Notes: generated by a model not told the origin, from the sequence alone. Shown: positions 461 to 60,220, counted from the first letter of the stretch. The stretch is DNA of 64,000 bases from Moniliella sp. 'wahieum' (GCA_003971905.1 RSEE01000023.1:124001-188000); one strand, 5' to 3'. A program made the numbers and translations.

Positions 461-1439
461 CACAGGCCTCCGTCCTGGTTCTGTGCTCGTCTACGGGCCA
501 CCATTTCCGTTACCTACCCCAGCCCCGGAACCGCGAGGACTGAGACTTGGCTGCAGGCCTTGTGCCAACGCTGCGGTGGGGCGAACAACTCCATAAGATC
601 AAGATCGCACATGTGCATGAACGTTGAACGTTGAAAACGTAGTACGACCGTGGGCGCCAGTGGCCCGCGTGGTTCTTAGCTTGGATCTTATCCACGCTTA
701 GGCTAGTTACCAGTTGCTAATAGCTTTACTGCATGCTAGTTATCTTATCGACTACAGGGTTATTAGTCACATATTAGCCACATGCACCGCTGCTGCCACG
801 CCAGAGACCACGCCCCATGTCACCCCTGCGCTGCAAGCCATGCCGCACCAATATTGTCCCTATGACAAACTAAGGTCCCACAAGCCCTAAGATCCTAGGA
901 CCTAAAACCTTAAGGTTTAAGACTAAAGCGAAGCTTCAACTTCCCACAGGTCTTACTTCAAGCTTCAAGCCTCACAGGCCCCAGATCTCGGAGGGCCCCA
1001 AGGCAGGCCCAAGCGACGGACGGCAGTAGTGAAGACGTGACAAGAGGTGTGGTTGCGGCCGAGTTTCCGTGACGCGTGACGCGTGACAAGCGAGATGTGG
1101 CACGCGACACTGCGCGCACACTGTTGAAATTGTTGAACGATAATCGATAATCGATGATCTCGAGTTTATATATATCGAAGCCATGAAAGTTGGTGCGGCC
1201 TGGTGTGGCTGGTGGGGTTGGCTTGAGTGAGTAGAGACAGTTAAACATCAGTGCATTGTGCTGAGGCTCAGCGCTCAGTCTGAGCGCTGAACCTCCGCAG
1301 CCTTGCTAATTTGATTAGCACCTCAGCTAGGCGCGCTGAGCCTCAGCGCCCAGGTTATAATAAGCGGTTGAGAGCAACTCTGAAAGCGCAGCGAAGCAGG
1401 TGGATTGGAACTCATAGCAGTACGTACAAAGTTTATTGG

Positions 1440-3340: not shown

Positions 3341-3499
3341 TGTTATCCCTTACTTATAGTCGGTGTAAACTGAGTACTGAGTTGGGTACTGATTGCTGTC
3401 ACCTGTGGACTCGGCGCAAACAGCGTCCGCATCTATTCAACGACGGTTCAAATAAAAGGTCCGATCAGCGATTCACATAGCCTGCGGCTCAGCTTCAAA

Positions 3500-7795: not shown

Positions 7796-9181
7796 GGAGA
7801 TGATGGAGCGTCGATTGGATATGAGGTGAGACGGGGCGGGGTAGTGACTGGCTGGAAGCATCCGCGCTCTCGATAACACGGTCCACATGATCCGACATGA
7901 GAGGGAGGGGGTTGCACCGACTAGGGTTGACTGCTCGATAATCGATAAGCACGGAAAAGCACCACAAGCGTTAGCTAAGCTGCGCTATGACGCAGGAGAA
8001 TGGGGACAGCATCACGCATCGGATCAGCCACTAGTCGCCTGACCCGTAACTTAACCTACACGCGTAACCCTATGCGGGCCTGCCGCAGTGCACAGTGGTC
8101 GTGCTGGGGGCTGGTACTTTTCGCTATGGTAATAGCTGCTTTTTACCGGCTTTTCAACGCCCAGGCTGAGACCGAGCGCTAAGCCCCAGCGCCGATCGAT
8201 CTTCAAGCTCCAGCCAGCGCTGCCCTTTGGCCAGCAAATGCGCTCGCGCCACTCCTTACCCTACTGCGTTTGGTGCGTTTGGTGCACCTCCCAAATCGAC
8301 CACCGTCTCGGCTACCGGTTCCCCTGTGTCCGCCATATGCGGTCATCAAAAATCGACCATTTTGTTGCTCACATACACGTATATTACACGCGGTGTCCCA
8401 CACGTTTTTGTATACATCAAGCCACTTGATAACAGGCCCCCAATGTGACGAAAACAGACAAGGAATGTGCTTGGCGTACTTGAGTTTTGGCGAGAACACA
8501 CACACCAGGGGTCCATGGATTCAGTGTGTGTGGTGGTATTGTTGTGGCCTTTCTCTCTGGGTTATATATGCGCGAAAGCGCACTATAGTGGTGTGGTGGT
8601 GGTTTACATGCTATATGATGAGAATACAACAGAGTGCGGCGGAGAGACCATTCATCTAAAAAGTGCGGCAATAGCTCTTGCCCGACGTGTGCATATGCTG
8701 TTTTTGAAGGGGGGTGTGGGGTCTATAACATCAGCATGGTCGCGTGAGATGTATATACACAACGGCGACAGGGGGGCGGGCAGACTGCCTGCGTAACGCA
8801 GGGGCCAAACTGTTCTGGCTGCATTCCCGTCCACATTAGGAAGGGTGGAGGCGTGCTGAGAATCATTCATCAACGTTCAGCCAATAAGAAATGGCCGCAA
8901 ATATTGCAGGCCCAATCGAGAGAGACGAGAGACACACGGAATCCGGAGTTGGCGTCGGTGGCGTGTGGTGTGGTGCCCGCCGCGTCGCTGCAGGCTCGGG
9001 GGCTGTCCCCTGCTGGGCGGGTGGTGGGGTGGTGGTGGAGGCACAGGGCGGTTCGCGGGACGTGTGCCCGGCTGGCTGAGCACGGGGCGAGTGTCGAGCG
9101 CCCTCCCCGATTGCTTAAATTCTGGCCTGCCTGGCGCTGGCCTCGGCTCGGCTGCTGCCACCATCGGGAGGCTGGGGTGCG

Positions 9182-18891: not shown

Positions 18892-20186
18892 CATTCCGAT
18901 CCTGAATCGTTCTGGATAATCTCGACGGTGACGGCCAAGGGTGGATGCTGGGGAGGGAATGACACTGCATGCCAGCTGCTGTTCCCCCTTTTGGTTTTGT
19001 CCCACCTACCTTTCTTTAGCGTGAACCCCCGCCCACGTGCCATTTGATGGCATCGGCTTCTCTTGTTTCCTTCACGTTTCGCGGTCAGAAACCCATGACA
19101 CGCATTACCAACTGAGTGCGGCTGGGAAAACAGTATGATGAGACCTGGGAGAGAGGGATGTAATCGCACCAAGTGGTGGCGGTTGTGGTGGCCTAAACCA
19201 ATGAGCAACGCTGACATGGTACAGAGGAACATCAATAATTCCAACAGCAGTCGCCACCAAGGGCTAGACTCCGGAACAAGGAAAACAGAGACAAGAAAAC
19301 AACGCAACTCCTGGGCCTGAAGAGGGACCGGGGGGACGTTTTGGCCAAAAAAACGAGCCACCCGGTGGCTCAACGCATAAGTACAGATGGCAACTGGAGC
19401 CTTAGGTTCTCTCCCAAAGCACTGCTGTCATTCCTTTGCATTCTCATGCATCACGTGGTAGATATGGAGAGTACCTGAGTACTGACTGAGTACCTTCCCG
19501 ACGCGTTTGGTCATGAGGGAGGAGAGCGACAAAGCGAGACCGGGGTTGAAGATGGACAGAGAACATGGGATTTGCATGGGATCCCACGGCGGAGAAGGGA
19601 GATGGAAGACGGAAGACGGGAATCGGGAGGTGCGAGATGCGAGACGGGACGTTGGTTGGCCAGATGACCAAAAGAGTAAGGCCAAGCCACGAGCACAGCA
19701 GCGACCGGATGATCATCGACCCCCCGTACACCTACCAGGGCTGGCTGCCAAGCGCCAAGTGGCAAGGGCCACGTGACTCGTTCCCATGTTTGCAGACAGC
19801 CAAGCGCTCCTGCGCACTGTCGCACCAGCTCGCACCTGGCATGTCGGAGGATGCCGGGCATCGATCATCGATCATTGATAGACCGACCATCGATCACCGG
19901 AGTCCCCGATCATCGATCATCGACATCGATCATGAATATTGAATCATCGATCATCATGCATCAATCGGCGACCTCCTGCTGATCACCGATGACACACTCA
20001 TGATAGTCCTGGGTCTGATTAATGATTGGGGCGGGAAGAGTCGCCGGCGGGGGGCCCCGACGCGCAGCCGCAGGCAGCGGCCTGGAGGAGGTTAGAGCGG
20101 CCAGGTGCGATTGACGGAGCCGACAATGGTCGGGTGCTGGAATCCACTCACCGACTGGTTAGTCGCTCGCTACTTGAAGCGTGGCG

Positions 20187-20235
20187 CATGATGCATGATG
20201 CATGACGCGTGACGTGTGACGCGTCACGCGTGAAG
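20187..20235. repeat. Array of seven in-phase NN-TNA-NN heptamers (best example of a window-wide intergenic motif class)
   Basis: caTGAtg caTGAtg caTGAcg cgTGAcg tgTGAcg cgTCAcg cgTGAag. Five of the six junctions are 4-bp palindromes. Confidence 0.9.
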
Positions 20236-20940
20236 CTAAAGTGCACAACCCGCCGGACCGCGACAGCTCGCCCTCGGCCTCACATGTCAGTCACATTTGG
20301 CGCTTTGAAATTGAAGCTTGAAGCTGCGCTGAGCGCGCTGAGCTCTGCGTCCGGTTAGGCTAGTGCAGTGCGTCCACGGCGCTCGGTGGACGTTGAAGGC
20401 ATTGGATTCCATTATTTGCAGTGGGCAAGGCAGGCCAGGGCCCGCAGGGGGGCAGCGGACTCAATCTGGACCGAGTTTTTGTTTACCGTGCCGATCTCGG
20501 TCATCGATCATCGATCACTAGATCACTGACATTGTCGCTGGCAGCTTGAGGCGATGCATGGGACAGCCATTGTGTTGTACGCACCAGCGCGCAGCTGGGC
20601 AGACGAGGCCCACGCTTGGGCACAGTCGCCCCGTGGCGCCCGATGGCCGGGCGGGGGAGCAGGGGGGCAGCCAGGGCGCCGGCTGCAGGCGGGGCCTTGC
20701 AGAGGCGGAGCATGGCGTCTGCTGCTGGGCACTGCACTGGCCCTCGCCTCGCGCGCCCAGTGATATTGGTCGCAGATCGCACGCCTAGCGCAGTCCTATC
20801 GTCCTAGGCCCGCGGCGTGCTTTGTGCGTTTCCACCGAGTGCTTGCCACTTGGCTTCCCTTCGTTCCGTCCCTGTCATTCCGTCCCTCTCCCTTCCTTTC
20901 CTTCCCACCCCCAACCCCCATCCCCCCCACGGCCGCCGCC

Positions 20941-24382: not shown

Positions 24383-25208
24383 AAGAGGAAAGCAAACGGC
24401 CGCTTATCCTCCCCCTCTCTCATCGCACTTTTCTTTGATTTTGGGCTATATCACTAGAGCATCTTCCCTTGCGCTCTTCCTACGACTGTCTTACCCGCCC
24501 TTGCTCTTTTTTCACCATCGTTGCGTGCTACTTTTTTTGGTTTTGGCGGCTCTCTGAGCATCGCCATTCCGTATGATTTCCCCCCCCTGATTTGTTTTTA
24601 CCCAACCCAGGGCCCGATCGCGGGCCCTTTCTCACCGCTTGCTCCGTATTCCCACGCCTATGGATTCCCCACCCCGTATCTCTCTGCCATTGATCCCTGT
24701 CTTCCCGTCTTCGGGCCCGTACCTTGCCTTTTGTCCTTCGATGATCCTCAGCCCTGGTCTTCGTTCGCACCGCGCTCCCCCACACCCCTTGTCGGGCGTC
24801 CTATATCCCTGTTTCTCACCTCTTCACGTTCTCGTGGTTTCACAGATGTCTACGGGAAAAAATGTCTGTAGCGCTCCCGCTCAGGTCCGAAGTGCCGCCA
24901 TAACAGTAGAAATCCATCCATCGTTCCCGGAACGGGATAGAATGGGATGCCGAGTACAGGAGAGCGGTATAGGTTGGATGCGTTGAAGCTTGAAGGAATG
25001 ATTTTGGGGATGGTGTGGCCTGCACCACCCGTCCCCCTTGCATATATGCAGCAACAACACTCTGCCCTCGGAGAGAGAAAGAACCAGAGAACCAGAGCGC
25101 ACACATATATAAGCTGCCGGCGTACAACCACTAAGAGAAAGCGCCCAGATATCTCGTCTCCGCCATCGTCCTCCCCATCTCTCCTCTCCGCCACATTACG
25201 GTTACAAG

Positions 25209-25497: not shown

Positions 25498-25813
25498 GTG
25501 GCACAGATGTGCCCCACCCAGGTCCTCCTTTGGGTGTCTCTTCGGCCTTTTGATGGCTCATTGCCTTATGGGGGCGGGAGTTTGAGAGAGAGGGGTGCAC
25601 TTTCCGCGCACTATATATACAAGACATACATTGGCTCTCCTCCTTACTGCGTCCGCGTCCATACACACCGTCAAAAGCGTGTAGTGTTATCATGGTGCGC
25701 TCGATAATTGGGTTTTTGGTTTCCACCACCCCTTTGCTGCTCTTCTTCTTCGTGTCTCTTTTGCCACTATGGATCCCTTTTTTTGTCCATCACACTTACT
25801 GTTACCTTGATCT

Positions 25814-25890
25814 TGTGAAAAGCCTTCATCGACTTATCTGTGAAAAGCCTTCATCGACTTCATCTGTGAAAAGCCTTCATCGACTTCATC
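25814..25890. repeat. Tandem repeat, 25-26-bp unit x3
   Basis: TGTGAAAAGCCTTCATCGACTT(C)ATC three times. Confidence 0.9.
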
Positions 25891-27441
25891 AGGTTCATCT
25901 TCACCCCCACTCCCACCCTTTCTCCCCCCCCGGGCAAAGGACTCCGCATAGCGAACGCTCCTGCTTGAGATCTGTTGGAGGTCTGGTATGCGGTAGCGCT
26001 GATGCTGAAGGAGTGGAATGGAGGATATGTGGTGTCACGGGCTGCGGCGGACTTGAGATGGTCCGACCAAAGCTAAGGCCCGCCCGCTCCGCACATGCCC
26101 AGTAGAGCGTGCTCCGCAGGCCAACCAAGGCACGAAGGGTCATGCTCCGCGCGGCAATAGTCGCCCCCCGTCCAAGTCCAAGTCGGCCGGCCTAAATAAG
26201 GCCACCGAGCTTCCAGCGCCGTGGCGACGCCTGTCGCCCCGTCCCCGTTTCCTTTTCCTTTCTCGGTCGCGCCTGCGGCGACCAACCCCGCTTTTGACAT
26301 GTCTTCCTTTCTACGCCCCCTCTTGTATCCGTTTCCCTTTGATCCTGCCTGTACCCCTGGTTGATGGGATCTTTTCCCTCACCTTCCATTCTCGTCTCCA
26401 CTCTCGTCCCCATTCTCGTCTCAACCTCCTCGTCTATCCTCTCGCATATCCCAGTGTCCGACTCCTGCCCGTTTTCCAGCCAATTGATCCAGTACAGGCA
26501 GCCTACTTTGTTAGCGTCCGACATCTCCTCCGATCTCGTCCTCCAGCCATTCGTCAGTCCAGTCGCGCGAGCCCTCCTTTGGTCGCGTCGATTCCAGTCT
26601 GAGTTGAGGCAGTGTTTGTCCCCCTCTGCCTCCTCCCGTCCCTAAGTCCCGGAGGCTTCAGACACGTTACTACGGCCCAAAAGCCGGTGCAGACGCATCC
26701 TTGCCACACGTGCAGCCGCCCCACCAAAGGCCTCTCCTCGTCCCTAACTCCGCTCGGACACACCAACCAGCCTAAGCCCGAAACTATCGTGAGTCGACCT
26801 ACCGTCGCCCAAGGGATTGTACCCCCAAAACCCCAGGGCGGGCCCCCTCGCGGCGCCCGCCCGTGACATGTGGTTCTGAGGAGGGTGCAGGAGGCGATGA
26901 GATGGATAAGGCCTTACATAGCCGAATGTACCGCGGAGCTGAGGGAGCATCCGGGCGGATAAGAGGGGATGCCTATCGCGCAGGAAGGCGTCATTGGGGC
27001 ATCGCCCCAACAGCGGATGCAATGGATCGCTTGATCGCTTGATATTGATATTGAGCGGGCGCCAAGGGAAAACTTATTGATCGCAATCGTCGGCAAGTCG
27101 ATAGAGGTGATATAGACGACAGCTGTGACCATGTGACATGGGACCATGAGACATGTGACCATGTGACATGTGATCTGGATAGCATGCAGGGGACCAGGGT
27201 TGTCGTCCATGCACCGTCGTGCACCCCCAATCCCCGCACTGGTCCTAGGCCTCCTCCCGCCGGCGTTGCCCGTCAGTACTCAGTACCCAGTGCGTGTGCC
27301 TGACATCTCATCGATCTCATCTGACCGCTGAGGCCCGGCGCTACCATCGGCAGCGTATATATTGGCGGCCTAGGTAGTGCAGCCTCCGTTCTCGCCATCC
27401 CCCGTCCTCTCCATCCCCCCTCCGCCTCCTCCGTCCCTACG

Positions 27442-29346: not shown

Positions 29347-29502
29347 GCGCGGCCGACGGGGGGCAGCGGTTCGGCCTGCACATAATGCTCACACCGCCTG
29401 TGCGCGGGCGTTGAGGTGCGCAATGCCGATGGTGGCAGTGCGTGGGGACACGTATGGATGCGAGGCTGGAGGTGGTGGTTGGTCTGGCGATGATCGATGA
29501 AG

Positions 29503-29812
29503 CTCACTGAGCCGAGAATCCATGTATTCCGCGGTGATTCTGTGCCCCCTCCGTGGTATGCCGTAGCTTGGATTCCGTGGCATACCGTGTTCATACCGTG
29601 TCTATACCGTGCCCATACCGTGCCCATACCGTGTTCATACCGTGCTCGTACCGTGTTCATACCGTGCTCGTACCGTGTTCATGCCGTGCTGGTACCGTGC
29701 TGGTACCGTACCTACTATACCGTGCTCGTACCATGCTCGTACCGTGCTCGTACCGTACCTATATCGTGTCCATACCGGGCCAATACCGTGCCTATACCGT
29801 GTTCATACCGTG
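29503..29812 (+). mobile_element. Solo left end of a CTCACTGA-terminated TIR transposon (TIR plus 11-bp subterminal array)
   Basis: CTCACTGAGCCGAGAATCCATGTATTCCGCGGTGATT... aligns with the left end at 30552 through TTGGATTCCGTGGCATACCGTG, followed by ~20 units of TACCGTGYYCR. Confidence 0.85.
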
Positions 29813-30239
29813 TTGACTTCAAGGCGAAGGAATTGATTATGACGCTGAGCTTGTACAAAGGCAACGGAGCTACCGACGGTGGCACCGTCTTCAAGCGCGT
29901 TGAGGTCAAGGCCAACAAAACTCATCAGAGTTATCGGATGGACCGCTGGGAAGTGCAGGGGGTGCCAGCTCTACTCAATCCCGAGTTTGAAAAAGCCGTC
30001 CCGCGTAACCCCCGGTGCCAACTACTTGGCAGATGCCGATGACGGTGATGGTGGAGGGATACAAGTACTACTGGCACATGGTCAGTGAGAGCTACTGCTC
30101 AAAGTGCTTGGACACGGGGCACTCTGCTGCCAAAGGAGGATGTCCTTGGTCAAACGAAGCTGAGGTGGTGGTTAAAGCGACATCGCCCCCGGCTCCGAAG
30201 CCCGCAGTCAAAAAGAAGCCTGCGAAAAAAGGCCCGTAA
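29813..30239 (+). pseudogene. 5'-truncated ORF with CCHC zinc-knuckle-like motif (gag/LINE ORF1-like fragment)
   Basis: ...MPMTVMVEGYKYYWHMVSESYCSKCLDTGHSAAKGGCPW... (C-x2-C-x4-H-x6-C), then a Lys/Pro-rich tail. Starts abruptly at the transposon-end junction. Confidence 0.45.
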
Positions 30240-30639
30240 AAGGAGGGGCGAAAGGACCCGTGCGGTGGCTGCGTGAACAATGAGCAATATGTCGCTTAAC
30301 TGGTTTTGTGCGAGGGAAGACGGGAGGGCCCACGACCCTACCAGACGCCCAACCGAGCAGACTCCAGATGAAGGAGAACACGAGGGCTGAGGGAGGCCCT
30401 CAGGATGGGCACTGTTGAAGGCTACAGGGAGCGGCTGCGTGGTGCACAATCGCGCTGACCTGCGAGCATACTGTCCCTTAGACGTTAAACACTTACAAAT
30501 ACCCTATCTTACTATACTACAAAAATATGGATAATGGTCATGCAGATCATGCTCACTGATCCGAGGCTCCAGGTATTCCGCGGTGATTCCGTACCCCTCC
30601 CGTGGTATTCAGTAGTATTCCGTAGTTTGGATTCCGTGG

Positions 30640-31008
30640 CATACCGTGCCCGTTCCGTACTTCTCCCGTACCACTTCCGTACCTCTTCCGTACCTCTTCC
30701 GTACCACTTCCGTGCCCGTTCCGTACCACTTCCGTACTTCTTCCGTACCACTTCCGTACCACTTCCGTGCCCATTTCGTACCACTTCCGTACTTCTTCCG
30801 TACCACTTCCGCACCACTTCCGTGCCCATTTCGTACCACTTCCGTACCACTTCCGTACCACTTCCGTACCCATTTCGTACCACTTCCGTACCACTTCCGT
30901 ACCCGTTCCGTGCGCGTTCCGTACCCGTTCCGTACCCGTTCCGTACCTCTTCCGTACCTCTTCCGTACCTCTTCCGTACCTCTTCCGTGCCCGTTCCGTG
31001 TTCATACT
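30640..31008. repeat. Left subterminal array of 11-bp units
   Basis: About 30 units of TACCACTTCCG / TACCTCTTCCG / TACCCGTTCCG / TGCCCATTTCG. Confidence 0.9.
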
Positions 31009-31719
31009 GTTGTATTCTATGGGATAAGTGCGCCCCTCCATCTTGAAAAAAAAGTGAGAACGAAATCCATAGACACACCACACAGGTTAGAATTTTTTTC
31101 AACCACGGAAACACCACAGAACTCCACGGGTTACCAAGGGTTACCACGGGTTACCACGGAATGGAAATGGCGTCCTAGGGTTACACTAGGGTTAGCTTAT
31201 AAGCCTTAGGGTTAGCTTATAATGCAATGTATCGGTACAGGGTTACATTGCTCAATACTTTGGGGGCCTATATGCGGCCCTCACTAGCCTCATTGGCAGT
31301 TGTGTTACTTTAGATCCTTTAGATATATGGGACATCTCTGTTGGGCTAATAGTGATTGTATTACTAAGGGTGCTACGGGAGGCAAGCAAGGCAAGGCAAT
31401 ACTGGTGGAGAAGATGCATCAGGCCTCAGGCCGTTAATCAGGGAAACGCAGCGTGAAGGCGCAACAGGAAGGGGCAGAACAGGCAGAATGGGGCCGCCTC
31501 GCGCGCAAGTTCCATCCACAGCAATCGATCGTACCGTTGCTTGATATCACAAATGGTGGCATGCTCCCTTTGACATGCTATCGGTAATTCTCACTGCGGA
31601 AGTACGGGTTAACATACCAAGCACATCAGAGGTTGATATATGATACCAACATGCATACCATGTAAGTCAGTGCCCAAGCATGTAAGTACCCACTTGTAGG
31701 AAGAGGTTAGTACCCAAGA

Positions 31720-31823
31720 AGCAGATCAGTACTCCCAGCAGGTCAGTACCAGCAGCAGGTCAGTATACCCAGCAGGTCAGTACACCCAACAGCAGGTCAG
31801 TACACCCAGCAGGTCAGTACACC
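31720..31823. repeat. Internal tandem repeat, ~17-bp period x6
   Basis: AGCAGGTCAGTA cores at 31720 (variant), 31737, 31754, 31771, 31791 and 31808. Confidence 0.85.
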
Positions 31824-32099
31824 TAGCAAAGACAGTACGGGGACGATTGGTTGGTCGCCACAGGACAGCAGGCATCAGTTGTTGAGATGCCGACAGATCT
31901 TTGGTTAGCACCTTACCCCAGTTTTGGTCTTCGGTTGGTCTGCAGGAAAGTGTGGAAATATTAGTGATAGGCATGTCGGGAAGGCGGTTGTTAGGGAAGA
32001 GGAGACCGGTGTGGAGGGGGGGAGGGGGGGGGGGGTATATATATCATTCAACTGTGAAAGGGGCGGTAAGAGGAGGACTGATGCAACAAGAGCAAAAGC

Positions 32100-33205
32100 A
32101 GTGTGGTTCTGGTGGGAAGGTGCACAGACCAGTAACGCCGACGCACGGACCCCCCACAGCTCAGCATATTAGCCCTGCGCTGTGCGTGTGGGAACAGCCC
32201 CTGGCAACCTCCGCAGCATACCCACACGCCACCGAGCTCCGAGAGCTCCTGGCGCCTCAAAGAGCTCTAAACGTACCATTTATTACGTCCCAACAGTCCT
32301 GCTGAGCCACCGGGTGGCCCGTGCTTTTGCCAACGTCCCTTCAGGTCCTCCTCAAGCCGGCCTAGGAGTTCCGTTTTGTTTCCTCCCTCCTGGTTGTCCT
32401 TGGTCCGCAGTTTTGCCCCTGGTGGCGACTCGCTGTCTGAAGCTTGATGCTCCTCTGTAGGGGTTGCTGGTTGACTTAGACCACCATCACCACCACCACC
32501 ATCAGTGCGATTGTATCACCCTCGAGGACCATCCAGACTCCAGGTTTCATCAAAAGTCCACCCATCCGAGGGCCGGCACATGTACGCTCCTGTGGAGTAT
32601 ATACTAGCCGTGTGCGATGCGGCAAAATGAGGCCCCGGGAACGTCCGCGGAGCTCCAAAGGAGTACATATCACCCTCTGGCCCTCATGATGGTCCACTCT
32701 CCACGTCTTCGCCAGGTTTTCCCCTCGGTCCTCTCCATCATCATGTCCGCCTCCTGGTCCGCCCCCTGGTCCGCCCCCTGGAGTCGTTTACTCTCTTCAG
32801 ACCACGGTAATGTACAACATCGCTGACGCTAAAGCACAGCAAGCACATCTATGGCAAGTGTGTCCGGCGAGCGAGCGTGCCGCCCTTGCGATATTGTTGG
32901 GCGCAAGAGGCATGGGGTGGGGTATATTGGCCAACGACACAATCCCTCTGAAATTTGCCCGCTGCTGGGCGACGGAAGCGATGATATTGATACCATCCAT
33001 TCTCCGTTGCGCATACCCGAAGACTGGGTCAACTGCAGAGTACACACGCACAAGAGCTTGAAGACCATGGGTCAGTCGCAAGCCAGAATTTTTTCAAGGC
33101 AGATACAGGATGGCCGACATTACCTCAACCTGAAAGCGCCTCTCATCATCATATGTGCCCTTCCTTTCATCCTGTTGAGCCCATGCACACCACCTTTCTC
33201 AATCT
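32100..33205 (-). pseudogene. 5'-truncated accessory ORF of the transposon
   Basis: KVVCMAQQDERKGTYDDERRFQVE-[GT..CTGAC..AG intron ~33123-33057]-ALVRVYSAVDPVFGYAQRRMDG...RGIVSLANI, then a Gly/Asp/Pro-rich low-complexity tail. Lies inside the TIRs. Confidence 0.45.
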
Positions 33206-33232
33206 GAGAAGAACGGTCTACGTGATCCAAGA

Positions 33233-34481
33233 TTGCCCATACATTTGGGTGCCGCCCATGTTGACCTTTTTAACGAGTTTCAGATGAAGTGTGCGTCCTC
33301 ATTCCCGAAACAGTTGTGTTTCTTATACTGATTGAATGAGCTAACCTTGAAACACAGGTCGATTAGGTTTCTTCCTTCTTCGTTTTGTAGTGGAGTGCCT
33401 CGTTCGATTGGTTCTGCTTGTAACAGCGGCATGCGCATGTTTGAGATTGCAGTCATATGAGTTGCATGCTTTATCCGTTCGTCAAGTTGCATTATCTGCC
33501 TCAGCAGATACTCGATCTGGGGAGCGTGATGCTTAGGCTGTTTGTCAACGGAAAATGTATGCTGCCGACGTCGAACGTCTCCGAACAACGGCCCTGCCAT
33601 TTTGTCAACGGTTTCACGACTTCACTGTTCCAAACGGTCTGAACGAAGAGATCAACCACATTCGATCTCGGTGCACAACACTCTTCATTGGGCTGACAAC
33701 ATGTGGAGATACGGCAATTGGCAGGCGATATGGACCGCCCCGGCAGAATGGGAACAGGGATGGTTGGGCCGCCATATCCGTTCGTTTACCAAACCGTATC
33801 CTGTCCTTGCTAACGAGGCGAGCAGGAGGAACCAGGATAACTTGGTTGGCATTCGCATGGATTCCATGCTCCCCCAAGCTATGACCACACTTTCGGTTGG
33901 GTTGAATCACAAACGAGAAGCTATTATTGATGGGCTCGATGGTGCAAGGGGGGATGCGGCGTTGCTGTGCTCGTTCAACATTGACCCTACCGCCCATTTA
34001 TCGATCTGGGCAGTAGCCGAGTGGGGGCCAAAAATGAGAACAGGCAACGTGTTCGAGGGCAACAGGGTCAGAATGCCTCGTCCCGTCTAGGACACTGTGT
34101 GCAACTACTCACAACAAATGCAGGCATTGTATAGCAATTGGCGCACGATGGGCACTTTTTCATGTTGATTGACTACTACATTGGGGTGGAGACCGATGAA
34201 GCGGGCTCCGAATACTACATTGTTGGTAGAACTCATCCGATTGATGCTGAAGGTAATGCGTCTCTACCACGCGATGAACAAGGCTTTCACAGAGCGACGT
34301 TCGCATCAGTAAACAACATTGTCGTCCCACTTGCCGACATTGGGTGGGTCATGGGACACATACCCTTGAGAAGGAAGTTCTGAGTTCGGATGCATTAGCA
34401 CGAATTGCAGCGGATGACGACGTTTCTGACGAGGAGGTTTGGATTTACCCTCACCCATTGGGTGCCGAACTTGGTGTCTGA
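33233..34481 (+). pseudogene. C-terminal half of an EnSpm/CACTA(CMC)-like DDE transposase
   Basis: Stitched: RFLPSSFCSGVPRSIG...DVERLRTTALPFCQRFHDF...ISVHNTLHWADNMWRYGNWQAIWTAPAEWEQGWLGRHIRSFTKPYPVLAN. This matches the EnSpm pattern LPSxF.R.PR ... HxxxH...G....WxxPxER..G.L. Intron at ~33292-33357. The N-terminal catalytic region is absent. Confidence 0.7.
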
Positions 34482-35279
34482 CAAAAAACACTATAAGTGT
34501 TGCGTGTGCCAAGGTACATTTTATTCCCGAGGAAAAGAGAAGGGAAAACAATATGCGTGCTGCCTTTGTTGGGTACTGTTTTGTTGGTGAAACGAAACGG
34601 AAATCAAATGGAGATCGGCATCAGAAATGCACAGTGGAACTGGAAGCTATCAAGCACTGGGATCGATCGAAGACGAAGGCTCACGAGCAGAAGCTGTTGG
34701 CATAGGTGCAAAAGAGACACGCAGAAGACTGCTATTGTAGGTGTATAAGGTGCTAAGCGCTCTTAGCCTTGAAAAGGATTGAGTGAGAGTGCTGCTGCCC
34801 TTTTGCACTCTACCATTTTTTCTCCAAGCCCAACGCCGGGCTAACGATTCTTCTTCCGAGTGTGCTCCCAAGTCGCACGCTCGCAAGTGTCAGTGTTGGC
34901 GAAGGGGGAACGGTGGCTAAGGTGGCGAAGGTTCCACGGTGGCTACGGTGGCGACCAAGCACCAGCTGGGGCTTCGCGTCGGCCCGGTGGTCTCCTTGTG
35001 GGTGATAAAATCCTCCAGCGTGGAACGGTGGGCCGGTGGCTACGGTGGCGAGCAAGCACCAAGCACCAAGCTGGGGCGAAGCCCCAGCTGGCCGGGCCGT
35101 AGGCCCGGTGGTCTTCTAGTGAAATTTCATTACTTGATTGCCAGGTCGAAATTTTTGCACGCTCGCAAGTGTTGCTCTTTCTCAACATTTCATTGCAGTA
35201 ATGAAATTTGATTACCGATTGCCAGGTCGAGATTTTTGAGCCTGACTCTTTCCTTGAATTTCTAGCCGCCTCGCAAAAC

Positions 35280-35460
35280 CCACCACGGAACACTCCGACA
35301 TACCGCGACATGGCACGACATGTCGCGGACTACCACCACATGTCGCGGAATACCACGGAACACCACAACATACCACGGAACGAAAAAAAGATCAAGACCC
35401 GATGGCCACGAAATGACACGGATTCACCACGACATACACGACATACCACGACATACTACG
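35280..35460. repeat. Right subterminal array of ~10-bp units
   Basis: Repeated ATACCACGGA / ACATACCACG / ACACCACGGA-like units, in inverted orientation to the TCCGTGGTAT units of the left end. Confidence 0.75.
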
Positions 35461-35519
35461 GAATACCACGGAAGGGGTACGGAATTACCGCGGAATACCT
35501 GGAGCCTCGGCTCAGTGAG

Positions 35520-35724
35520 GATCATGTTCTCTGGATATACGGGGCCATCAAAATAGTGTAAAAGAGCCCTGCATAGTAGTAAGTCCATCTAATCCACGGC
35601 ACAACAACTGTAACAGAGAAAAAGGAGTAGCCTGATCTGTGGCTGTTTCCACTACTAAGATCATGTTCTCTGCATATACTCGGGACCATCGAAAATAGTG
35701 TAAAAGAGCCCTGCATACTAGTAT
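35520..35724. repeat. Diverged ~62-bp direct repeat, 139-bp spacing
   Basis: GATCATGTTCTCTG.ATATAC..GG.CCATC.AAAATAGTGTAAAAGAGCCCTGCATA.TAGTA at 35520 and 35659. Confidence 0.85.
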
Positions 35725-37961: not shown

Positions 37962-39966
37962 GATGAAGTATGAGGAGTAAACCTTAAGAGTGGGGGTGGG
38001 TTGAGTGCGAGAAAAGGGGGGTGTGGAAGCGTTGGAAGTGATGGAAAAGGAGCTTGCTCCGCCGTAGGTTATATACAGCAGAATTTACAGGAGAGAGCAG
38101 CTGTATCCTTTTGCGTCAAGCTCGCCATTGAACCGTGTGGCGAGCGCTACGGGCGCGACTTGTCCTGCGTCCTCTCAGTGTGACCGTTTTCAGATGCGGC
38201 TGAGCTCTTCGGTGCCTGGATGGTGTAGGAGATAGAGTTGCGGACCTAACTCGTTGCCTCTACCTGGTACCAACACCCATATTGGTGCCAGGTAACGTGC
38301 AGTCCCGGACATTTTTTGGGGCTTTTCCTCCAAAAGTCGCTTTGTATCATAAGGCTGCTGTGCTCATGGTGCTCCCCACAGCACCCTGGGGCAGGCAGCA
38401 AGAGCGCCTCAGGGGGTAACCAAAAACACGTAAGGGAAAACTGAACAACGACGGCAACAGATGACTGCCATTACCGCTTAACCACTATTCCACTGTTGCA
38501 TGTTACACTGTTATCGACAGCAACAGGACCACACACGCACGCCATCTGTACACGATACATGGAATACAGCGGTAGCTCCGGTAGCTGTGTGGTGCTTGGC
38601 CAATTTTTATCTCGTTCCCCACAGCAGGACTTGTTCCGGACGCACGCCGTCTCGTATTTCCGCCTGATGGGCCCTTTGGGCTGGCCCATCGGGAGGCTTC
38701 ACTTGACTGATCTAGCCCCACCACTGCTGGGTCATCCATCTCACCGGTCTCCCTGCTCAGGATGACGATCTTTGCGACCTCCCTCCCAGCGGGAGAGCAC
38801 GCTAGCGAGCAGGTGCAATCATTAATCAACGCGCTCACGGTGAGCACTACGCCAGACTGCGCTCGAGGGGAGTGTCCTTGGTGCCGGTGATCGCACAATC
38901 GGTGCGCATGATGCATTGCAAACGTTTGGCGCTTAATGTTTAACCGCGGTGTCCGTCATCGGTTTCCATCAGGCAGTTGCTCAGTACTGCCGCGCTCGAT
39001 GCGCCGCTCTGGCTTGTGGTGGCGAATGTGCTGGCCACCTTGCTTGTGGGCGCGAGCAGGGGCCCAATGTGCCCCCTGAAGCTGGGAAGCGTCAGCGCTC
39101 AGCCTCAGCGCAGGGCGCCATGTGGGGGGTGCGTGCTTCCCCCAGACGATTCAACCGCACAGCAGAGACGACGCCGCAGACAAAGGAGCACGACATCGCG
39201 TCTGGGTTCTGGGCAATGCGTACGCTGCTTGTTTCAACATTTCATCCTCCTCTCCGTCTCCCGGCCGCACCAGTGCCACCTACCCTGCCGCCCCACACGA
39301 GCGAGTTGCTCAAACAGCGTACCCGAATTAAACGCCTCCGCCGGCGCCACCGCCTTGCCCAAGACGCAATTTCCTCCGGGCGAACGTTGAAGCTTGAAGC
39401 TTGAAGCAGCAAGAATGGCCAATGTCCGGATGGCCGCAATCCTCTCTTGAAGCTTGACTTCATCCGAAGACAGGCATGGACGCGTGAGTGACGCGAGACG
39501 CATGACGCGGCGCTAGTCGTGATAGTCGTGGCGTTACTCTGTGCGCGTTTTACGGCCAGCTAGAGCTACAGAGCAGCCTGCAGACGACCCCATATAGTTT
39601 CGGTCTGCCACCCGGAACTCATCACTCTCCAATCTCTAGTCTGCAGGGCTCTGGTAACCGGTTACCGGTAACCGGTAACCATCCTTCTGTTCTGGGTGAC
39701 CAGGAGCGACATCATGCATCCCAGTTCATCAATATGAATGTGTGGAGTAGGAGGGTAAAGGCGTGGAATAAAAAGTTAGGTTGGTGTGAAAAACGAGAAA
39801 CATACATATGGGACGAGGCTGGCTCCAGTTCTCCATCTCAACTTCATCGAGATGGACTTGATCGACTTGATCGATCATCGGCACCACCGCCAGACCTGAT
39901 AGATATCAAGCATGGGCCCTTGACAAGCGCGCGCATGCAGCATAGGCCTTTCACACGGAGGGGTCA

Positions 39967-43192: not shown

Positions 43193-43688
43193 GATGGAGA
43201 GGGCAGGTGATGGTGGTGAAGGTGTGCGAAAAGAAGCAGTGCGTCATATCAGCCGATCCAACCAACCTACACCTGCCAAAATAGCTGCCCAGCAGCCATT
43301 CCACCCAATCCAGCCTGTGCAGGCCAGTGCTCGATCATCCATTGCGTCGGTATCATCCATGCTCGACGCCCGATCGCCGATTATGCAACCCGTCATATAT
43401 TCACTGCCATGGAGCGGCCAGAGGCCAGACGCTTCACTCTAAGCGTTAAGCTTCGCTTCACTCCCCCCGTGACGTGTGACATGGCACGCGTGACAGGCGA
43501 CAGTTGGCGCGCACCGTCACGTGCGGCACATTGGACTGGTTACGCGTTCCGGTCGGTCCCCCGGGTGACATAATTGGTCACGTGCCCAACAACCACCGCA
43601 GTCTCGCCCCACGCACGCGAAACCAACACTGCTGCCTTCGCGACGACACTGGCCGCCACCAGCCACAACCACACCCGTGCGTGCAGCT

Positions 43689-44167: not shown

Positions 44168-44729
44168 GCGAGCCAATCACTGCTAGCCCATTTGTACCCA
44201 CCTCAGCCCCACCCCTCACCCGCCCCCCGCAAGAGGACCCTGTATGCTACACCAGGTCAGAGTGTAATTGTATCATGTTTTCCGCCTCCTCCGGTAGCTG
44301 CTTCCAAGCATCCTTTCTCCGTACTGCATGTATCTAGAAGACCTTCGCTTCTAAAGCTACCTGGTGGCGTGCATGTGAGGGAATATGGTGGATACAGTGT
44401 TCCGAGGAGAGGTACAGGAGACTGAGGCATAGCGCCTTATATGCAACCGAGGATCCGGGGGCACGGGTGCACCCACATGGACCGGAGGGGTATTTCCTAT
44501 CACGCCATGTCGCGTAAAAGGGAGCACTCCAACATCCTCAACACTTCAAGAGACTCAGAGAAACTCATCGTATGTGGGGGTTTGTGTTACATAGTAGGCT
44601 CGACGAGAAGGGGGGGAGGGGATCGCAAGGGGGGGTGGGGAGGAAGCGAACGGGAGGTGGACGCAGCCAACGGGGGAAGAGAAGTTGGAAGATGCCTGGG
44701 CAAGAGGATTGAATGGCCAACTCCAAGGC

Positions 44730-45323
44730 TTACCAGCCTCCCTGGTTGCCGCCGTAACCTTGCTGGCCGTAACCGCCTTGGGGTCCACCGTAACCGCCTT
44801 GGTTGCCGCCGTAGCCGCCCTGGTTACCGCCGTAGCCACCCTGGTTGCCATTGTAGCCGCCCTGGTTGCCACCGTACTTGTTGTCGCCGCCAAATCCGCC
44901 CGAAGCGAACGATTCCTCTTCCCTCTTGGCCTTGTGCTCCTCGTAGCGGCCGTGAATGTGCTCGCCAACCTTCTTGCCTACCTCCGCAAGAATGGCACCG
45001 CCAGCAATGGAAACAAAGTTGCCATGCTGCGAGCCGGTCGCCTTGTTGGCAGCAAAGCCAGCAAGGCCACCGAGGGCCATGGTGCCGAGACCGCGGTCAC
45101 CACCCTCGCCCTGGTTGCCTTGGCCATCAAACTCGTTGCCGCCGCGGTATTCCTGGTTGGCGCCGCCTTGGTACGATTGGGACTCTCCGTAGCCCTGGTT
45201 GCCCTGGCCGTAGCCTTGGTTTTGGCCGTAGCCTTGGTCTTGGCCGTAGCCCTGGTTTTGGCCGTAGCCTTGGTTTTGGCCGTAGCCGCCAGCGCCGGGT
45301 TCAGGGAATCCACCGTAGGACAT
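44730..45323 (-). CDS. Gly/Gln/Asn/Tyr-rich protein with central glycine-zipper segment (197 aa)
   Basis: Intact ORF: (GYGQNQ)x5-like N-terminal repeats, GEGGDRGLGTMALGGLAG...IAGGAILA, (GGNQGGY)x6-like C-terminal repeats. Confidence 0.85.
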   Translation of the reverse strand: MSYGGFPEPGAGGYGQNQGYGQNQGYGQDQGYGQNQGYGQGNQGYGESQSYQGGANQEYRGGNEFDGQGNQGEGGDRGLGTMALGGLAGFAANKATGSQHGNFVSIAGGAILAEVGKKVGEHIHGRYEEHKAKREEESFASGGFGGDNKYGGNQGGYNGNQGGYGGNQGGYGGNQGGYGGPQGGYGQQGYGGNQGGW

Positions 45324-54519: not shown

Positions 54520-55767
54520 GTCGTGAGGGGGTGTGTAGTTGGGATATAAGGGGTAGGGTAGCGGCGATGGAGGTGGTGGGGGAGGTGGTGCAGGTGGGAG
54601 GTGGTCGGGGGGGTTGAAGAAGGGACCGAATGGGTGGAGTTGGCCAGCTCATTTGGCGTTTCAGTTCAGGCAGCATCTGAAATTATAACAATACACGTCC
54701 GCCGGCACTGCGCGAGTGCAAGTGCACGGCCGCTGATGCCGCTGCCCCCGTGCGGGTCCTCAGCACTCAGCTCAGGCTGGGGGCATTTCTACCCCCGTGC
54801 TGTGACTTGTCCTTTCCGCATTGCGCCGCTGTCACACACCGTGTCCTTCATGCCTATCACCTCTCCCGCCAGTGCACTAGACAGCAGTCCGCGCCGTGCG
54901 CATTATAACCATCCCCTTCCCCAGCTCACGCCACCCTTCCATAGCCACAGGCTGAGGCTCTTCCCCATTTGTCACATATATGCACGCTTCCTTCACCCTC
55001 TGGCGCTCAGGCGTTCAGGCGCTCGTGCCTTTTGGAGGGTGGCGGCATGTGACACCACTTGGTGTGATGGCTTGATCGAGCTGGCAACCTGAGCGCTCAG
55101 GCTGGGCTGGGTAGTACAGAGTTCCGCGTCTCGCGCGCTCCGGATTAGTTACCGTCGGGCCTCGTTCCCCCTCCTTTGTTGCATTCAAGGTCGGACTAGC
55201 GTCAGGCCCTGCTGTTTCCGCCCCGCACACCAGGTGAGCTTCCTCTGTTCTCTCTTTTTCTGTTCTCTTCGTGTTTTTCTGGCGTTTGTCCTTTTTGCCA
55301 TCGGTTACAACAGACGGTTCGGTTTAGACATAGCGCTTCCCCTGTCACAGCCTTAAGCTCTGTCAATGAAATAGACGCAACAGAGGGTCGGAGGACCTTC
55401 AAGCCACGGTACAAGAATTTATCTCTGACTGATTCCTATCTTCCCTTGATGCACAGTGCAATCGTCCTTAGCTTGGTAGCGTAGCTATACTTCAATCTCA
55501 GCATGGACGTGCTGAGGGGGGACCCTCAGACCTCAGCCTCTCAGCGCCTCAGCCCCGGCCCAAGGGGCATGCACTTCTATACTCACGCGCGATATATATT
55601 CACGACACATAAATCCAGTTCAGAGCTTGACAAACTCAAGTCGACAACATGATGGCTGAGGCCCTGAGGGCAGTATCAGCCCAATCCGCCGAGGGGGCAC
55701 ACAACAGGCAGTGGAAGCCTGCCGGGATCAGAGTTTTGTGTTGCGATGTGCCAACCAGGACCATACG

Positions 55768-57392: not shown

Positions 57393-60220
57393 TAGGAGGC
57401 GGGGGTATCGGGATGATGTCGATGATGAGAATTCCTGAAGCCTGAGGGCTTCAGAGAGATGGAGAGGAAGAAAACAGGGGGCGGGGGGGGGGGGCGGGTA
57501 ACCGGTAACCGATGACTTGGACCATATAGCATGCGGGGAAGCGGTAGAGGAAGATATAGCTAGTGACCGGTGACGCGTTACGCGTTACGCATCATGTTAG
57601 CGCCTGTTACATGATAGCGCTTAGCGCTCAAGCGTGCTTGGTAGCGCCTAGGTGGTTACTATATCCGACGGTTACTGAGGTTTCCTCCAAATTTGCTATT
57701 TACTCTAGCCCCTAGGGCCACTAGCACCAACCGAACTAAGTGCTAAGTGCTGATCGCGCTGGTCAAGCATGCTTTCCCAACAGGGGGGTGGGGGGTACCG
57801 GGTACCGGTTACCCCGTGTTGCCAGTATGTCTGTCACATGCAGCGTCACACATGTCACACTCTCGGTATGCCCAACAACCCCGTCCGTTGGGGCTTTTTG
57901 GTCTTACAATAGGCCGAGGGAGTGGATACTAGAGAGCTCGCCCCACGGCGGTTGTTGCGCCCGCGTGGCAGGGCGTGGCAAGTGGAGGTGCTCATTAACA
58001 TTGTGGGGGCGATTCGCGTGGGAGCTGGTAACTCCGGTAACTGGTAACTGAATACTGTCTGACTGGGCCCGGTGGACGCTGCAATCCCTCTCCGCTTGCC
58101 TCATCGGTCACTCATCGATGACCATCGATTCTACCAGCAGTTGGCCAAGATGACACCGCTGCAATGGTGAGACATCTCGGCCCGCCGGCGGCCGCCGGCC
58201 CAGGGTCCAGCAAATCCCTCGCTGCGGCAGAGACCACTTTTGAAGGTAGGGTCACGGGTGATCAGTGACCATCACTGACGCGTGACGACGCTTAAAGGTT
58301 TTGAAGCTCTCCATTTCCCACATGTGCCCCTGATCGCCTGGGCGTCGGAGCTACGGTCTGCCATGGCACTGCGCCTTGCCCGGAGGAAGGCGGTTGGGGA
58401 AGCGTACGCATAGGAAAGCTGTAGCTTAACAGTCGGAAGCAGAAGCAAGTCCTGAAGGAGGCAAATGATTAGGCTGGCAGAGGAGGTAGACACGGTTTCC
58501 GAAGAAAACGAAGGAGGATTACCTGATTGCTAACAAGAGGACAGTCACAAAGCGCTACAATGCGAGACACAAGTCGGCCCGTGGGCAGAGTAAGAGATGG
58601 CGCTGACGCGTGACGAGCGACAGTGACTAGTGCCTAGTGACCAACTAGTGGCCTAGTGACACGCGCGCATTACCGAAGACACGCCACGGGGCCAGTGACT
58701 TTGGAATGACTAGTGACTGCCCCGGGGAGGCAGGGGCACATGCAGGGGGCATGCCGGGTGCCGTGGGGCCCCACTTCAGCACAGGCGCCGTGCTTCCTTT
58801 GCTGCTTGGCGCAGCGCGTGAGCAACTGGATCCTCGGAGTCTGTGATTGAGCCCTGATCGATGATCATCGATCATCTATCACGCAGCCATACGCCAGGCC
58901 CCAGCCCACTCAGTTACCCAATAACCAAATGCTGCGCAATGCGGCTCAGCGCCGGAGCAGTGTACCTGGCTGGGCATGGATGGAGAGTGCATCCCTGAAT
59001 CCTGGGGCAGGTGGTTCGAAGTTGGCTGAGCGCGGGCAGGGCTGAGCGGCTGAGCAGCGCTGACCAGTGACTAGTGCGGCCTAGGGCCGCGGATCGAGGC
59101 TAACTGGGTGACCGCGGTGGCTGGGAGCCAGCAACTGGTAACTGTTGCTGGCTGGGTACCTGGGTGCACAGGCTCAGCGGCCAGCACGAGAGTCGAGTAC
59201 GACCGCATACGAAGTATATTGGTACTGACCTGGTGCCGTACCTACTGAACGTTGGACGCTAGACGATGGACGTTGGACGAGCGCAGCCGACGTCTGCGCT
59301 GGGCGGCAGCAGGCGGCAGTTGAGCAGCAGCGGCGGCTAGTGGGGATGCGAAATGCGCGGCCCGCCAGCCAGCACACACACCATCATGCCATGTCGCATG
59401 TCGGCAGCAGCATCGCGTGCCAACAATACTGCCCCCGTGGCTCGGCTGGGCGGCGCAGGCACCGCTGGCACTGCTCGCGCTCCTGTCTCCACGATCCAAT
59501 CCCCCGGCTCTTCCCGCACTGTGCGCATCACACACCAGCCATCACGCATGGCATGTATCAGTGCAAGAGGCGCCAGGAGGAGCCCCAGGGAGCCCCACAC
59601 TTTCTCGCATCTGCGTGGCACTGCGCCGCAGTCTGCCGCACTGCCCGCCTGTGCGTCCCTCCTTTTTCCGTTCGATGTTCGCCGCCGCCCAGACACGCCC
59701 AGACATGGTGTTGCGATGCATGTGCCCCCCAGTGCTGCCACCCCCTGCTCCTCCCCGTGCCCGCACACGCTGCAAGCTCAGAGTGACACCCACCATCCAA
59801 GACCTCAACGTCTCAACGCCTCAACCACTCAGTCCTCCAGTCGCTCCACAGCCACCGAGCCCCCCCCCTCGGCCACCAGCTCACCGGCCACAACTCACGG
59901 GCATCACCGGTCACTCCACGCTGCTAGCCCTTGGCGCTTACTAGCCCCCCCCCCGTCACGCTAGTCGTCATACACGTCATAGCTGTGTAACCATGTAACC
60001 GGTGACCGGTGACCCAACCTGGCCACATTCCCCCGCCACACTCGGCCGGCTCCAGCCACAATCCCACCCGAACAACCCCCCCTCCCTCCCCGGGTATAAA
60101 ACCTGACAGTAGTCGTCCTGGTCACTCATCCTTCTCTTACCCTCTTGGCTACTCTTCCGTTCTCCCACCTCTTCCAGTACCCGCATTGTTCTCTTCCATC
60201 CACGCATCCATCACCAGCAC

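Follow-up and report, generated by a model that had tools for sequence, protein, structure and literature searches.

The 64-kb window analysed here, 64,000 nucleotides of fungal nuclear DNA from Moniliella sp. 'wahieum' (RSEE01000023.1:124001-188000), carries many short arrays in which heptamers of the form xyTNAzw follow one another in 7-bp phase and meet at self-complementary 4-bp junctions, and it also carries a non-autonomous DNA transposon. The relation between the arrays and the transposon, with the array at 20187-20235 as the point of departure, is the subject of this text. All counts given below refer to the window, and all shuffles are dinucleotide-preserving. The G+C content ranges from 50 to 64% across the window (2-kb bins), and the Pfam domains found on its open reading frames (ORFs) are COG7, a protein kinase with KA1, an S10 carboxypeptidase, Duc1, a trehalose synthase/phosphatase and a major facilitator superfamily (MFS) transporter. 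The trehalose-synthase ORF shares 86% identity with a protein of Moniliella megachiliensis, Ustilaginomycotina providing the next best matches, and a metagenome scan for relatives of this ORF gave 63 pattern matches, none of which was confirmed.

The array at 20187-20235 consists of seven in-phase heptamers, and its letters agree exactly with the reading in the first-pass annotation, which had described a palindromic 4-bp junction persisting along the array while the units change; the palindrome is present at five of the six junctions and is missing at the junction between cg and tg. All 17 further sites listed in that annotation are present, 16 of them straightforwardly and one (43468-43495) in imperfect form, and the arrays form clusters, such as those at 19.4-20.5 kb, 39.0-39.9 kb and 57.5-60.0 kb. 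Across the window, TNA-N4-TNA with a palindromic N4 was observed 73 times compared with 8.3 +/- 3.1 in 40 shuffles, whereas the same arrangement with a non-palindromic N4 showed no excess (109 versus 119 in shuffles). Spacers of 2, 6 and 8 nucleotides and the symmetric triplets ANT, GNC and CNG were not enriched relative to shuffles, and among the 16 XNY triplet classes strong enrichment was confined to TNA (73 versus 7.6 +/- 2.1), with GNA and TNC reaching a z of about 2. When the same centre base was required on both sides, a palindromic filler of length 4 occurred 56 times with 2.2 expected, and only a mild rise was seen for lengths 3 (19 versus 9.4) and 5 (7 versus 2.5). The comparison suggested in the first-pass annotation, that of palindromic and non-palindromic N4 against other spacers and shuffled DNA, was run on the window and yields an excess specific to palindromic N4; by the triplet-class, spacer and filler-length counts alike, the association of a 7-bp phase with a palindromic junction is very strong and specific. 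Exact tandem duplications with a period of 7 and a length of 14 nt or more number 37, of which 24 have a 3+1+3 palindromic rotation, 23 of these being of the form xyTNAzw. The contiguous clusters amount to 60 (50 doublets, seven triplets and three of four units), and in 42 of them at least one pair follows the grammar in its outer bases as well, compared with 0.73 +/- 0.75 in shuffles.

What distinguishes these pairs becomes apparent when the 73 are classed by their outer dinucleotides, with expectations taken from 60 shuffles and primes marking complementary bases. In class A both outer dinucleotides fit, giving two identical palindromic units (17 observed, 0.03 expected); class C1 has the form xyTNAzw.w'z'TNAzw (21 versus 0.52) and class C2 the form xyTNAy'x'.xyTNAzw (16 versus 0.57); and in class B neither outer dinucleotide fits (19 versus 5.8). 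Taken together, C1 and C2 form the commonest class, with 37 pairs where about 1.1 are expected, and this is the product that the first-pass annotation had predicted, namely TNA-zw-w'z'-TNA with one original outer dinucleotide retained. Plain xyTNAzw.xyTNAzw pairs with a non-palindromic junction are rare (2 versus 0.6 expected). The palindrome rule applies to the junction and not to the unit: a palindromic junction with exactly one palindromic unit is found in 37 pairs (0.93 expected), and two palindromic units with a non-palindromic junction in three (0.63 expected). In a class-C pair, five or six of the seven positions repeat, and to these are added two new bases that repeat the preceding two in reverse complement. 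The non-fitting outer dinucleotide is off at one position in 19 of these pairs and at both positions in 18, and because the unmatched dinucleotide often differs at both positions, class-C pairs did not arise by decay of perfect duplications. Their junctions hence require the addition of two palindromic bases, of the kind supplied as P-nucleotides when a flank hairpin is opened; such bases can be templated by the opposite strand, as happens in an opened hairpin, but cannot come from slippage or from the fill-in of a staggered cut. C1 and C2 are of similar frequency and all 16 palindromic tetramers are found at junctions, so that neither a fixed element terminus nor a single DNA-binding protein is implied. 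The centre base is identical in 56 of the 73 pairs and complementary in 11, where 2.0 are expected. With coding sequence taken as nine Pfam-supported ORF segments that make up 14% of the window, the statement in the first-pass annotation that the arrays lie outside coding sequences holds for classes A and C, with none of 54 pairs inside such segments, but not for class B, with 2 of 19 pairs inside.

The transposon (Table 1) starts with CTCACTGATCCGAG, an inverted copy of which is present at its other end. It inserts by a 7-bp staggered cut in nnTNAnn, duplicating xyTNAzw, and the 7-bp, TNA-centred target-site duplication (TSD) that the first-pass annotation had postulated is borne out by the GATCATG on both sides. 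With its T in third and its A in fifth position, this heptamer follows the nnTNAnn frame of the arrays; it is palindromic in its inner 5 bp only. The right flank of the element (35520-35581) is repeated 140 bp downstream at 35659-35723 with 90% identity, from the target heptamer on, and the single GATCATG at the start of this repeat resembles an unoccupied copy of the target. A second member of the element family is present as a solo left end, whose flank GATGAAG is again TNA-centred and is preceded by GATGATC; the end therefore adjoins a gaTGAtc gaTGAag doublet in 7-bp phase, as repeated visits predict, and the idea of repeated visits to a regenerated target thus finds one element end placed directly on an in-phase doublet. 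No further element with a 7-bp TSD was found in the window, either with a terminal inverted repeat (TIR) matching at 12 or more of 14 positions or with one matching at 10 or more of 12 positions and a TNA-centred TSD, and a degenerate pattern derived from the element's TIR gave no matches in a metagenome scan.

Read from these features, the arrays are probably the iterated excision footprints of a transposon family with a 7-bp TNA-centred TSD, and each component of the first-pass proposal that lent itself to a check within the window agreed with its prediction. On excision, each flank would be sealed as a hairpin at the exact boundary of the element, and the host would open these hairpins about 2 nt from the tip, the flanks staying double-stranded up to TNA. 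This would produce self-complementary 4-nt overhangs, zww'z' at the left flank and y'x'xy at the right one, and joining that retains one of them would give either xyTNAzw.w'z'TNAzw or xyTNAy'x'.xyTNAzw, either of which lengthens the site by exactly 7 bp. The added unit would be a perfect palindrome and again an nnTNAnn target; its two overhangs would be identical, and a later visit would add an identical unit, giving class A and the longer arrays. A non-palindromic founder would hence grow differing units to its left and right. Opening at least 4 nt from the tip would leave the centre base flipped, with TGA beside TCA, in keeping with ggTTAcc at 39660 and with the complementary centre bases found in excess. 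Artemis prefers to open hairpins 2 nt from the tip. According to the excerpted text of PMC5499845, flank hairpins are made by hAT elements, Transib, RAG1 and the Mutator-like element Muta1, and Artemis-type host enzymes may open them. Footprints of Ac/Ds in Candida albicans carry palindromic P-nucleotides, Pso2 having been implicated in yeast, and two footprints dominate there, accounting for 35 and 18 of 128 clones (PMC5873905, in the part consulted).

For the array at 20187-20235, the third unit, caTGAcg, is the sole unit with unlike halves; caTGAtg units lie to its left and cgTGAcg-like units to its right. With caTGAcg as founder, the left half would give rise to the caTGAtg units and the right half to the cgTGAcg units, and the iterated-footprint model accounts for units 1-4 without mutation. 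The cgTCAcg unit of the same array fits hairpin opening at least 4 nt from the tip.

Several points weigh against this account. Within the same array, unit 5 (tgTGAcg), the last unit (cgTGAag) and the upstream in-phase ctTGAag and cgTGGcg require additional substitutions. The excess of class-B pairs (19 versus 5.8) is covered only if these are older, mutated class-C scars; a single mismatch separates 13 of the 19 from class C, where 4.2 are expected. A single complete copy with a TSD and one clear solo end are what ties the arrays to the element. Pfam revealed no transposase in the 18 ORFs inside the element, in a neighbouring 407-aa ORF or in the four ORFs beside the solo end, and at E <= 1 the ORFs of the element and the solo end gave two chance-level hits only (E 0.11 and 0.18). 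Footprints formed by end joining are usually heterogeneous, with 28 types among 128 clones (PMC5873905), and just 8 of 94 excisions in rice were perfect (PMC4423477); one outcome dominates here, which requires an unusually fixed position of hairpin opening. The palindromes of Ac/Ds are odd and centred on the complement of the element-adjacent base, whereas the junctions here are even, at 4 bp (PMC5873905); because the junction palindromes are even and not base-centred, the cleavage geometry of the element, if it is a hAT, would be unlike that of Ac. The evidence is drawn from one window of one genome, and excision through flank hairpins, the chemistry of which depends on the superfamily of the element, is a probable reading of its sequence.

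Four variants of the process were considered and discarded. Duplication of a 3-bp TNA with two bases contributed by each element end is ruled out by the occurrence of all 16 tetramers and by the outer-base match in class C. A preference for palindromic targets with both TSDs retained is ruled out as well, class C being dominant and the element's own TSD not a full palindrome. Mosaic repair of the two overhangs as a source of class B would explain too few pairs (4 of 19, with 0.6 expected), and filling in of both overhangs, giving TNA-pal4-pal4-TNA, is not enriched (1 versus 0.4).

An alternative that keeps the transposon but reverses the order of events is that the arrays are of some other origin and that the element simply prefers them as landing sites, a palindromic run of nnTNAnn being suited to a dimeric transposase. 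Target motifs of transposons are generally palindromic (PMC4168063, in the section drawn on), and the solo end on its doublet would fit the targeting of a pre-existing array equally well. However, it would then be a coincidence that the array period equals the TSD length of the element with TNA at the same position, the heptamers that flank the elements (GATCATG and GATGAAG) are non-palindromic in their outer bases, and this explanation offers no other process that would add w'z' beside zw in 37 pairs; we consider it unlikely. We regard as similarly improbable a nuclease acting without a mobile element, such as a domesticated transposase or abortive cleavage, whose breaks at nnTNAnn, with a 7-bp stagger or capped by hairpins, would leave the same palindromic 7-bp gains after repair. 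The grammar of the products constrains the break and its repair only and not the presence of an element, a uniform outcome is easier to reconcile with a cut defined by an enzyme than with free end joining, and about 1.5 element copies stand against 42 grammar-fitting clusters in 64 kb, all of which would be in keeping with such an enzyme. However, none is encoded among the ORFs tested, a real element with the right TSD sits in the window, and fill-in of a simple 7-nt stagger would lead to the plain duplications that are rare here. We know of no element-free nuclease of this kind.

Much less probable is that the arrays are ordinary period-7 microsatellites, generated by replication slippage of hairpin-prone units and diversified by CpG decay, in which cg changes to tg or ca. 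Units 1-5 at 20187-20235 do differ from cgTGAcg by transitions at CpG positions alone, and slippage could extend an array once it exists; however, deriving units 1-3 from cgTGAcg needs five transitions, with every junction staying palindromic throughout. Slippage cannot make a first copy, and 50 of the 60 clusters are doublets; nor does it account for the two new palindromic bases of class-C pairs or for a strong enrichment that is confined, among heptamer classes, to TNA with a palindromic spacer. The first-pass annotation had already considered slippage insufficient, which is upheld by the class-C pairs, not being true 7-bp duplications, and by the palindromic units in 24 of the 37 exact period-7 duplications. 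Clustered transcription-factor binding sites under promoter selection are the least credible source, since the arrays are indeed intergenic and clustered but, as the same annotation had argued for a single factor, the 16 junction tetramers and freely varying outer bases do not suit one, 56 of 73 pairs have their TNA cores in direct orientation and not as the inverted half-sites of a dimer, and many arrays are visibly decaying.

The coordinates of the array sites and of the parts of the element are collected in Table 1.

Table 1. Heptamer arrays and transposon features in the window (positions counted from its first nucleotide; a dot marks features without strand)
Feature	Position	Strand	Sequence or remark
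Array of 7 in-phase heptamers	20187..20235	.	catgatg catgatg catgacg cgtgacg tgtgacg cgtcacg cgtgaag
Non-autonomous DNA transposon, 4968 bp	30552..35519	+	TIR starts CTCACTGAKCCGAG; 84-nt arms, 88% complementary
Left TSD	30545..30551	.	GATCATG (gaTCAtg, TNA-centred)
Right TSD	35520..35526	.	GATCATG
Left subterminal array, 11-bp repeats	30653..30999	+	TTCCGTACCAC, 31.5 copies
Right subterminal array, ~10-bp repeats	35406..35470	+	CCACGACATA-like, motif inverted
Single GATCATG	35660..35666	.	opens 65-bp paralogue (90% identity) of the element's right flank
Solo left end, second copy of element family	29503..29833	+	own 11-bp array 29581-29812
Doublet at solo element end	29489..29502	.	gaTGAtc gaTGAag; form xyTNAy'x'.xyTNAzw
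Triplet	616..636	.	caTGAac gtTGAac gtTGAaa
Triplet	956..976	.	ctTCAag ctTCAag ccTCAca
Triplet	1068..1088	.	cgTGAcg cgTGAcg cgTGAca
Four units	1132..1159	.	gtTGAac gaTAAtc gaTAAtc gaTGAtc
Doublet	3369..3382	.	acTGAgt acTGAgt
Doublet	7937..7950	.	gaTAAtc gaTAAgc
Long degenerate gaTCAtc array, indels and phase shifts	19859..19965	.	Tandem Repeats Finder: 13.6 copies over 19859-19955
Doublet	20310..20323	.	atTGAag ctTGAag
Triplet	20499..20519	.	ggTCAtc gaTCAtc gaTCAct
Doublet	24982..24995	.	gtTGAag ctTGAag
Doublet	27162..27175	.	tgTGAca tgTGAtc
Doublet	27271..27284	.	cgTCAgt acTCAgt
Triplet	39386..39406	.	gtTGAag ctTGAag ctTGAag
Four units, one with flipped centre base	39653..39680	.	ggTAAcc ggTTAcc ggTAAcc ggTAAcc
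Imperfect array	43468..43495	.	cgTGAcg tgTGAca tgGCAcg cgTGAca
Doublet, perfect 14-bp palindrome	55088..55101	.	ccTGAgc gcTCAgg
Doublet	57497..57510	.	ggTAAcc ggTAAcc
Five units	57562..57596	.	agTGAcc ggTGAcg cgTTAcg cgTTAcg caTCAtg
Doublet	58274..58287	.	acTGAcg cgTGAcg
Doublet	58602..58615	.	gcTGAcg cgTGAcg
Two doublets	58853..58876	.	ccTGAtc gaTGAtc, then gaTCAtc gaTCAtc
Triplet	59994..60014	.	tgTAAcc ggTGAcc ggTGAcc

Some sites depart from the common form. At 20326-20343, GCGCTGAGC occurs twice, giving TGA-gcgcgc-TGA with a 9-bp step and a 6-bp palindromic filler, which the same process may have produced through a less frequent mode of repair. The sole cases of plain duplication, at 58020-58050 and 57736-57751, are period-7 duplications with TNA-centred units (ggTAAct and gcTAAgt) and non-palindromic joints, and may represent excisions that left both TSD copies untouched. 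G-rich tracts are found at 57477-57498 (22 nt, 80% G), immediately 5' of a ggTAAcc doublet, and inside the element at 32016-32035 (20 nt, 89% G). The interior of the element also contains, at 31583-31610, an extra CTCACTG that is preceded by the TNA-centred ggTAAtt and followed by CGGAAGTACGGG, the subterminal motif in inverted form, and a 17-bp array follows at 31704-31828; the site may mark a third end, nested and belonging to a related element, or the 7-mer may match by chance. A further interior segment, 32303-32523, is about 72% identical, in reverse orientation, to the intergenic segment 19151-19372 just upstream of the array-rich 19.4-20.5 kb region, and may have been captured from the host or be what is left of another copy. 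Beside the solo end, 29836-30239 holds two short ORFs in different frames without a Pfam or database match, one of which has a cysteine/histidine-rich stretch and a lysine-rich tail; the 76-aa ORF at 30009-30239 had no match in a large protein database, in a search restricted to longer proteins. Elsewhere, the long ORF at 44426-45667 has no Pfam match and contains in-frame tandem repeats of 21 bp and 18 bp at 44766-45287, so that it probably encodes a repetitive low-complexity protein, and two unrelated short tandem arrays are present at 384-466 (38 bp, 2.2 copies) and 25806-25890 (26 bp, 3.3 copies), each 95% matching.

Footprints of excision are generally regarded as single scars, rare and heterogeneous, whereas here, if the iterated-footprint interpretation is true, they would be the main source of intergenic short tandem repeats. 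The array density in the window is roughly one locus per 1.5 kb, and if the 42 grammar-fitting loci in 64 kb reflect the density genome-wide, the number of such loci would run into thousands. More broadly, one transposon family together with host hairpin repair could act as a deterministic repeat generator that adds one heptamer per visit and builds a palindromised, self-reinforcing landing pad, a proposal for and against which we see about equal grounds. If the interpretation holds, it would provide an undescribed route to the birth of microsatellites and not to their growth alone, and promoters would vary in length in 7-bp steps. The arrays would then also form a genomic record of the number of visits to each site and of the positions at which its hairpins were opened, making past traffic measurable at vacated sites, and the repair chemistry (a hairpin at the exact element boundary, opened roughly 2 nt away from its tip, and retention of one overhang) would be readable from the genome, offering a natural fungal system for the study of hairpin opening and end joining. 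In the open full-text literature, a scope that leaves out subscription journals and Repbase reports, we found no account of scars iterated in phase, of footprints that palindromise their own target, or of Moniliella transposons. The nearest precedent is reportedly a Stowaway element, with repeated insertion and loss at one site.

As to the element itself, which we assign to no family, the first-pass annotation had reasoned from the excision of hAT and CACTA elements. Flank hairpins and P-nucleotides are documented for hAT (PMC5499845 and PMC5873905, both in excerpt), but the element has been identified as neither and CACTA is excluded. CACTA/EnSpm elements are excluded by TSD length, theirs being 2-3 bp (PMC12730594) compared with 7 bp here, and although a CACTG, which besides CACTA is a terminus typical of such elements, does start at base 3 of the TIR, shifting the boundary there abolishes the TSD. 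The hAT transposase, with its DDE core and C-terminal dimerisation domain, was not found in the ORFs of the element, a result that, the element being non-autonomous, does not decide against hAT. The terminal motif of hAT elements is YARNG, and their TIRs are short, whereas the TIR here is 84 nt long and starts with CTCACTG. The TSD of hAT elements is 8 bp, or 7 bp in hAT7, and the 7-bp TSD of the present element therefore fits hAT7 only; among the basidiomycete DNA transposons covered in the consulted part of PMC12730594, 7-bp TSDs are found in fungal hAT7 and Kyakuja, hAT7 being present in rust fungi; placement in either group depends on the transposase. However, Kyakuja elements have CA..TG termini and no TIRs, in contrast to the 84-nt TIR starting with CTCAC here (PMC12730594).

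In its architecture, the element resembles Muta1, which has a foldback-type long TIR composed of a terminal motif and many 12-bp subterminal tandem repeats and is excised via hairpins, the counterpart here being an 84-nt TIR followed by 31.5 copies of an 11-bp repeat (PMC5499845). More generally, Mutator-like TIRs exceed 100 bp and often come with subterminal tandem repeats; the arms here are 84 nt long, 88% complementary and bear the 11-bp and approximately 10-bp arrays. However, the TSDs of Muta1 and other Mutator-like elements measure 8-10 bp, and in yeast Muta1 is excised precisely in more than 90% of cases, whereas the TSD here is 7 bp and scars are abundant (both comparisons drawn from the excerpt of PMC5499845). 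Galileo of Drosophila, a member of the P superfamily, shares with the present element a 7-bp TSD, which in Galileo is the 3+1+3 palindrome GTANTAC, and long, variable TIRs, but its core is A-N-T with fixed outer bases, in contrast to T-N-A with free outer bases here (PMC4168063, in the passage used). The THAP-domain transposase of the P superfamily gave no Pfam hit in the element, which, as the element is non-autonomous, is not decisive. To our knowledge, P-type excision does not form flank hairpins.

The phenomenon as such belongs to a known class, that of excision footprints with P-nucleotides, and what sets the arrays apart is their iteration. Excision footprints retain direct repeats of TSD length, and the arrays have a period of 7 bp, the length of the resident TSD, with TNA central in both; footprints also carry flank-templated palindromic additions at the joint, the counterpart of which are classes C1 and C2. 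Closest in this respect is Ac/Ds, with footprints known from plants, budding yeast and Candida albicans, in which, as described in the excerpt of PMC5873905, both TSD copies are kept together with short flank-templated palindromes that arise from flank hairpins opened off-centre, and in which a few footprints can dominate. However, the Ac/Ds TSD is 8 bp and its excision leads to many outcomes (28 types), whereas here the TSD is 7 bp, one outcome dominates and the scars are iterated into arrays (PMC5873905).

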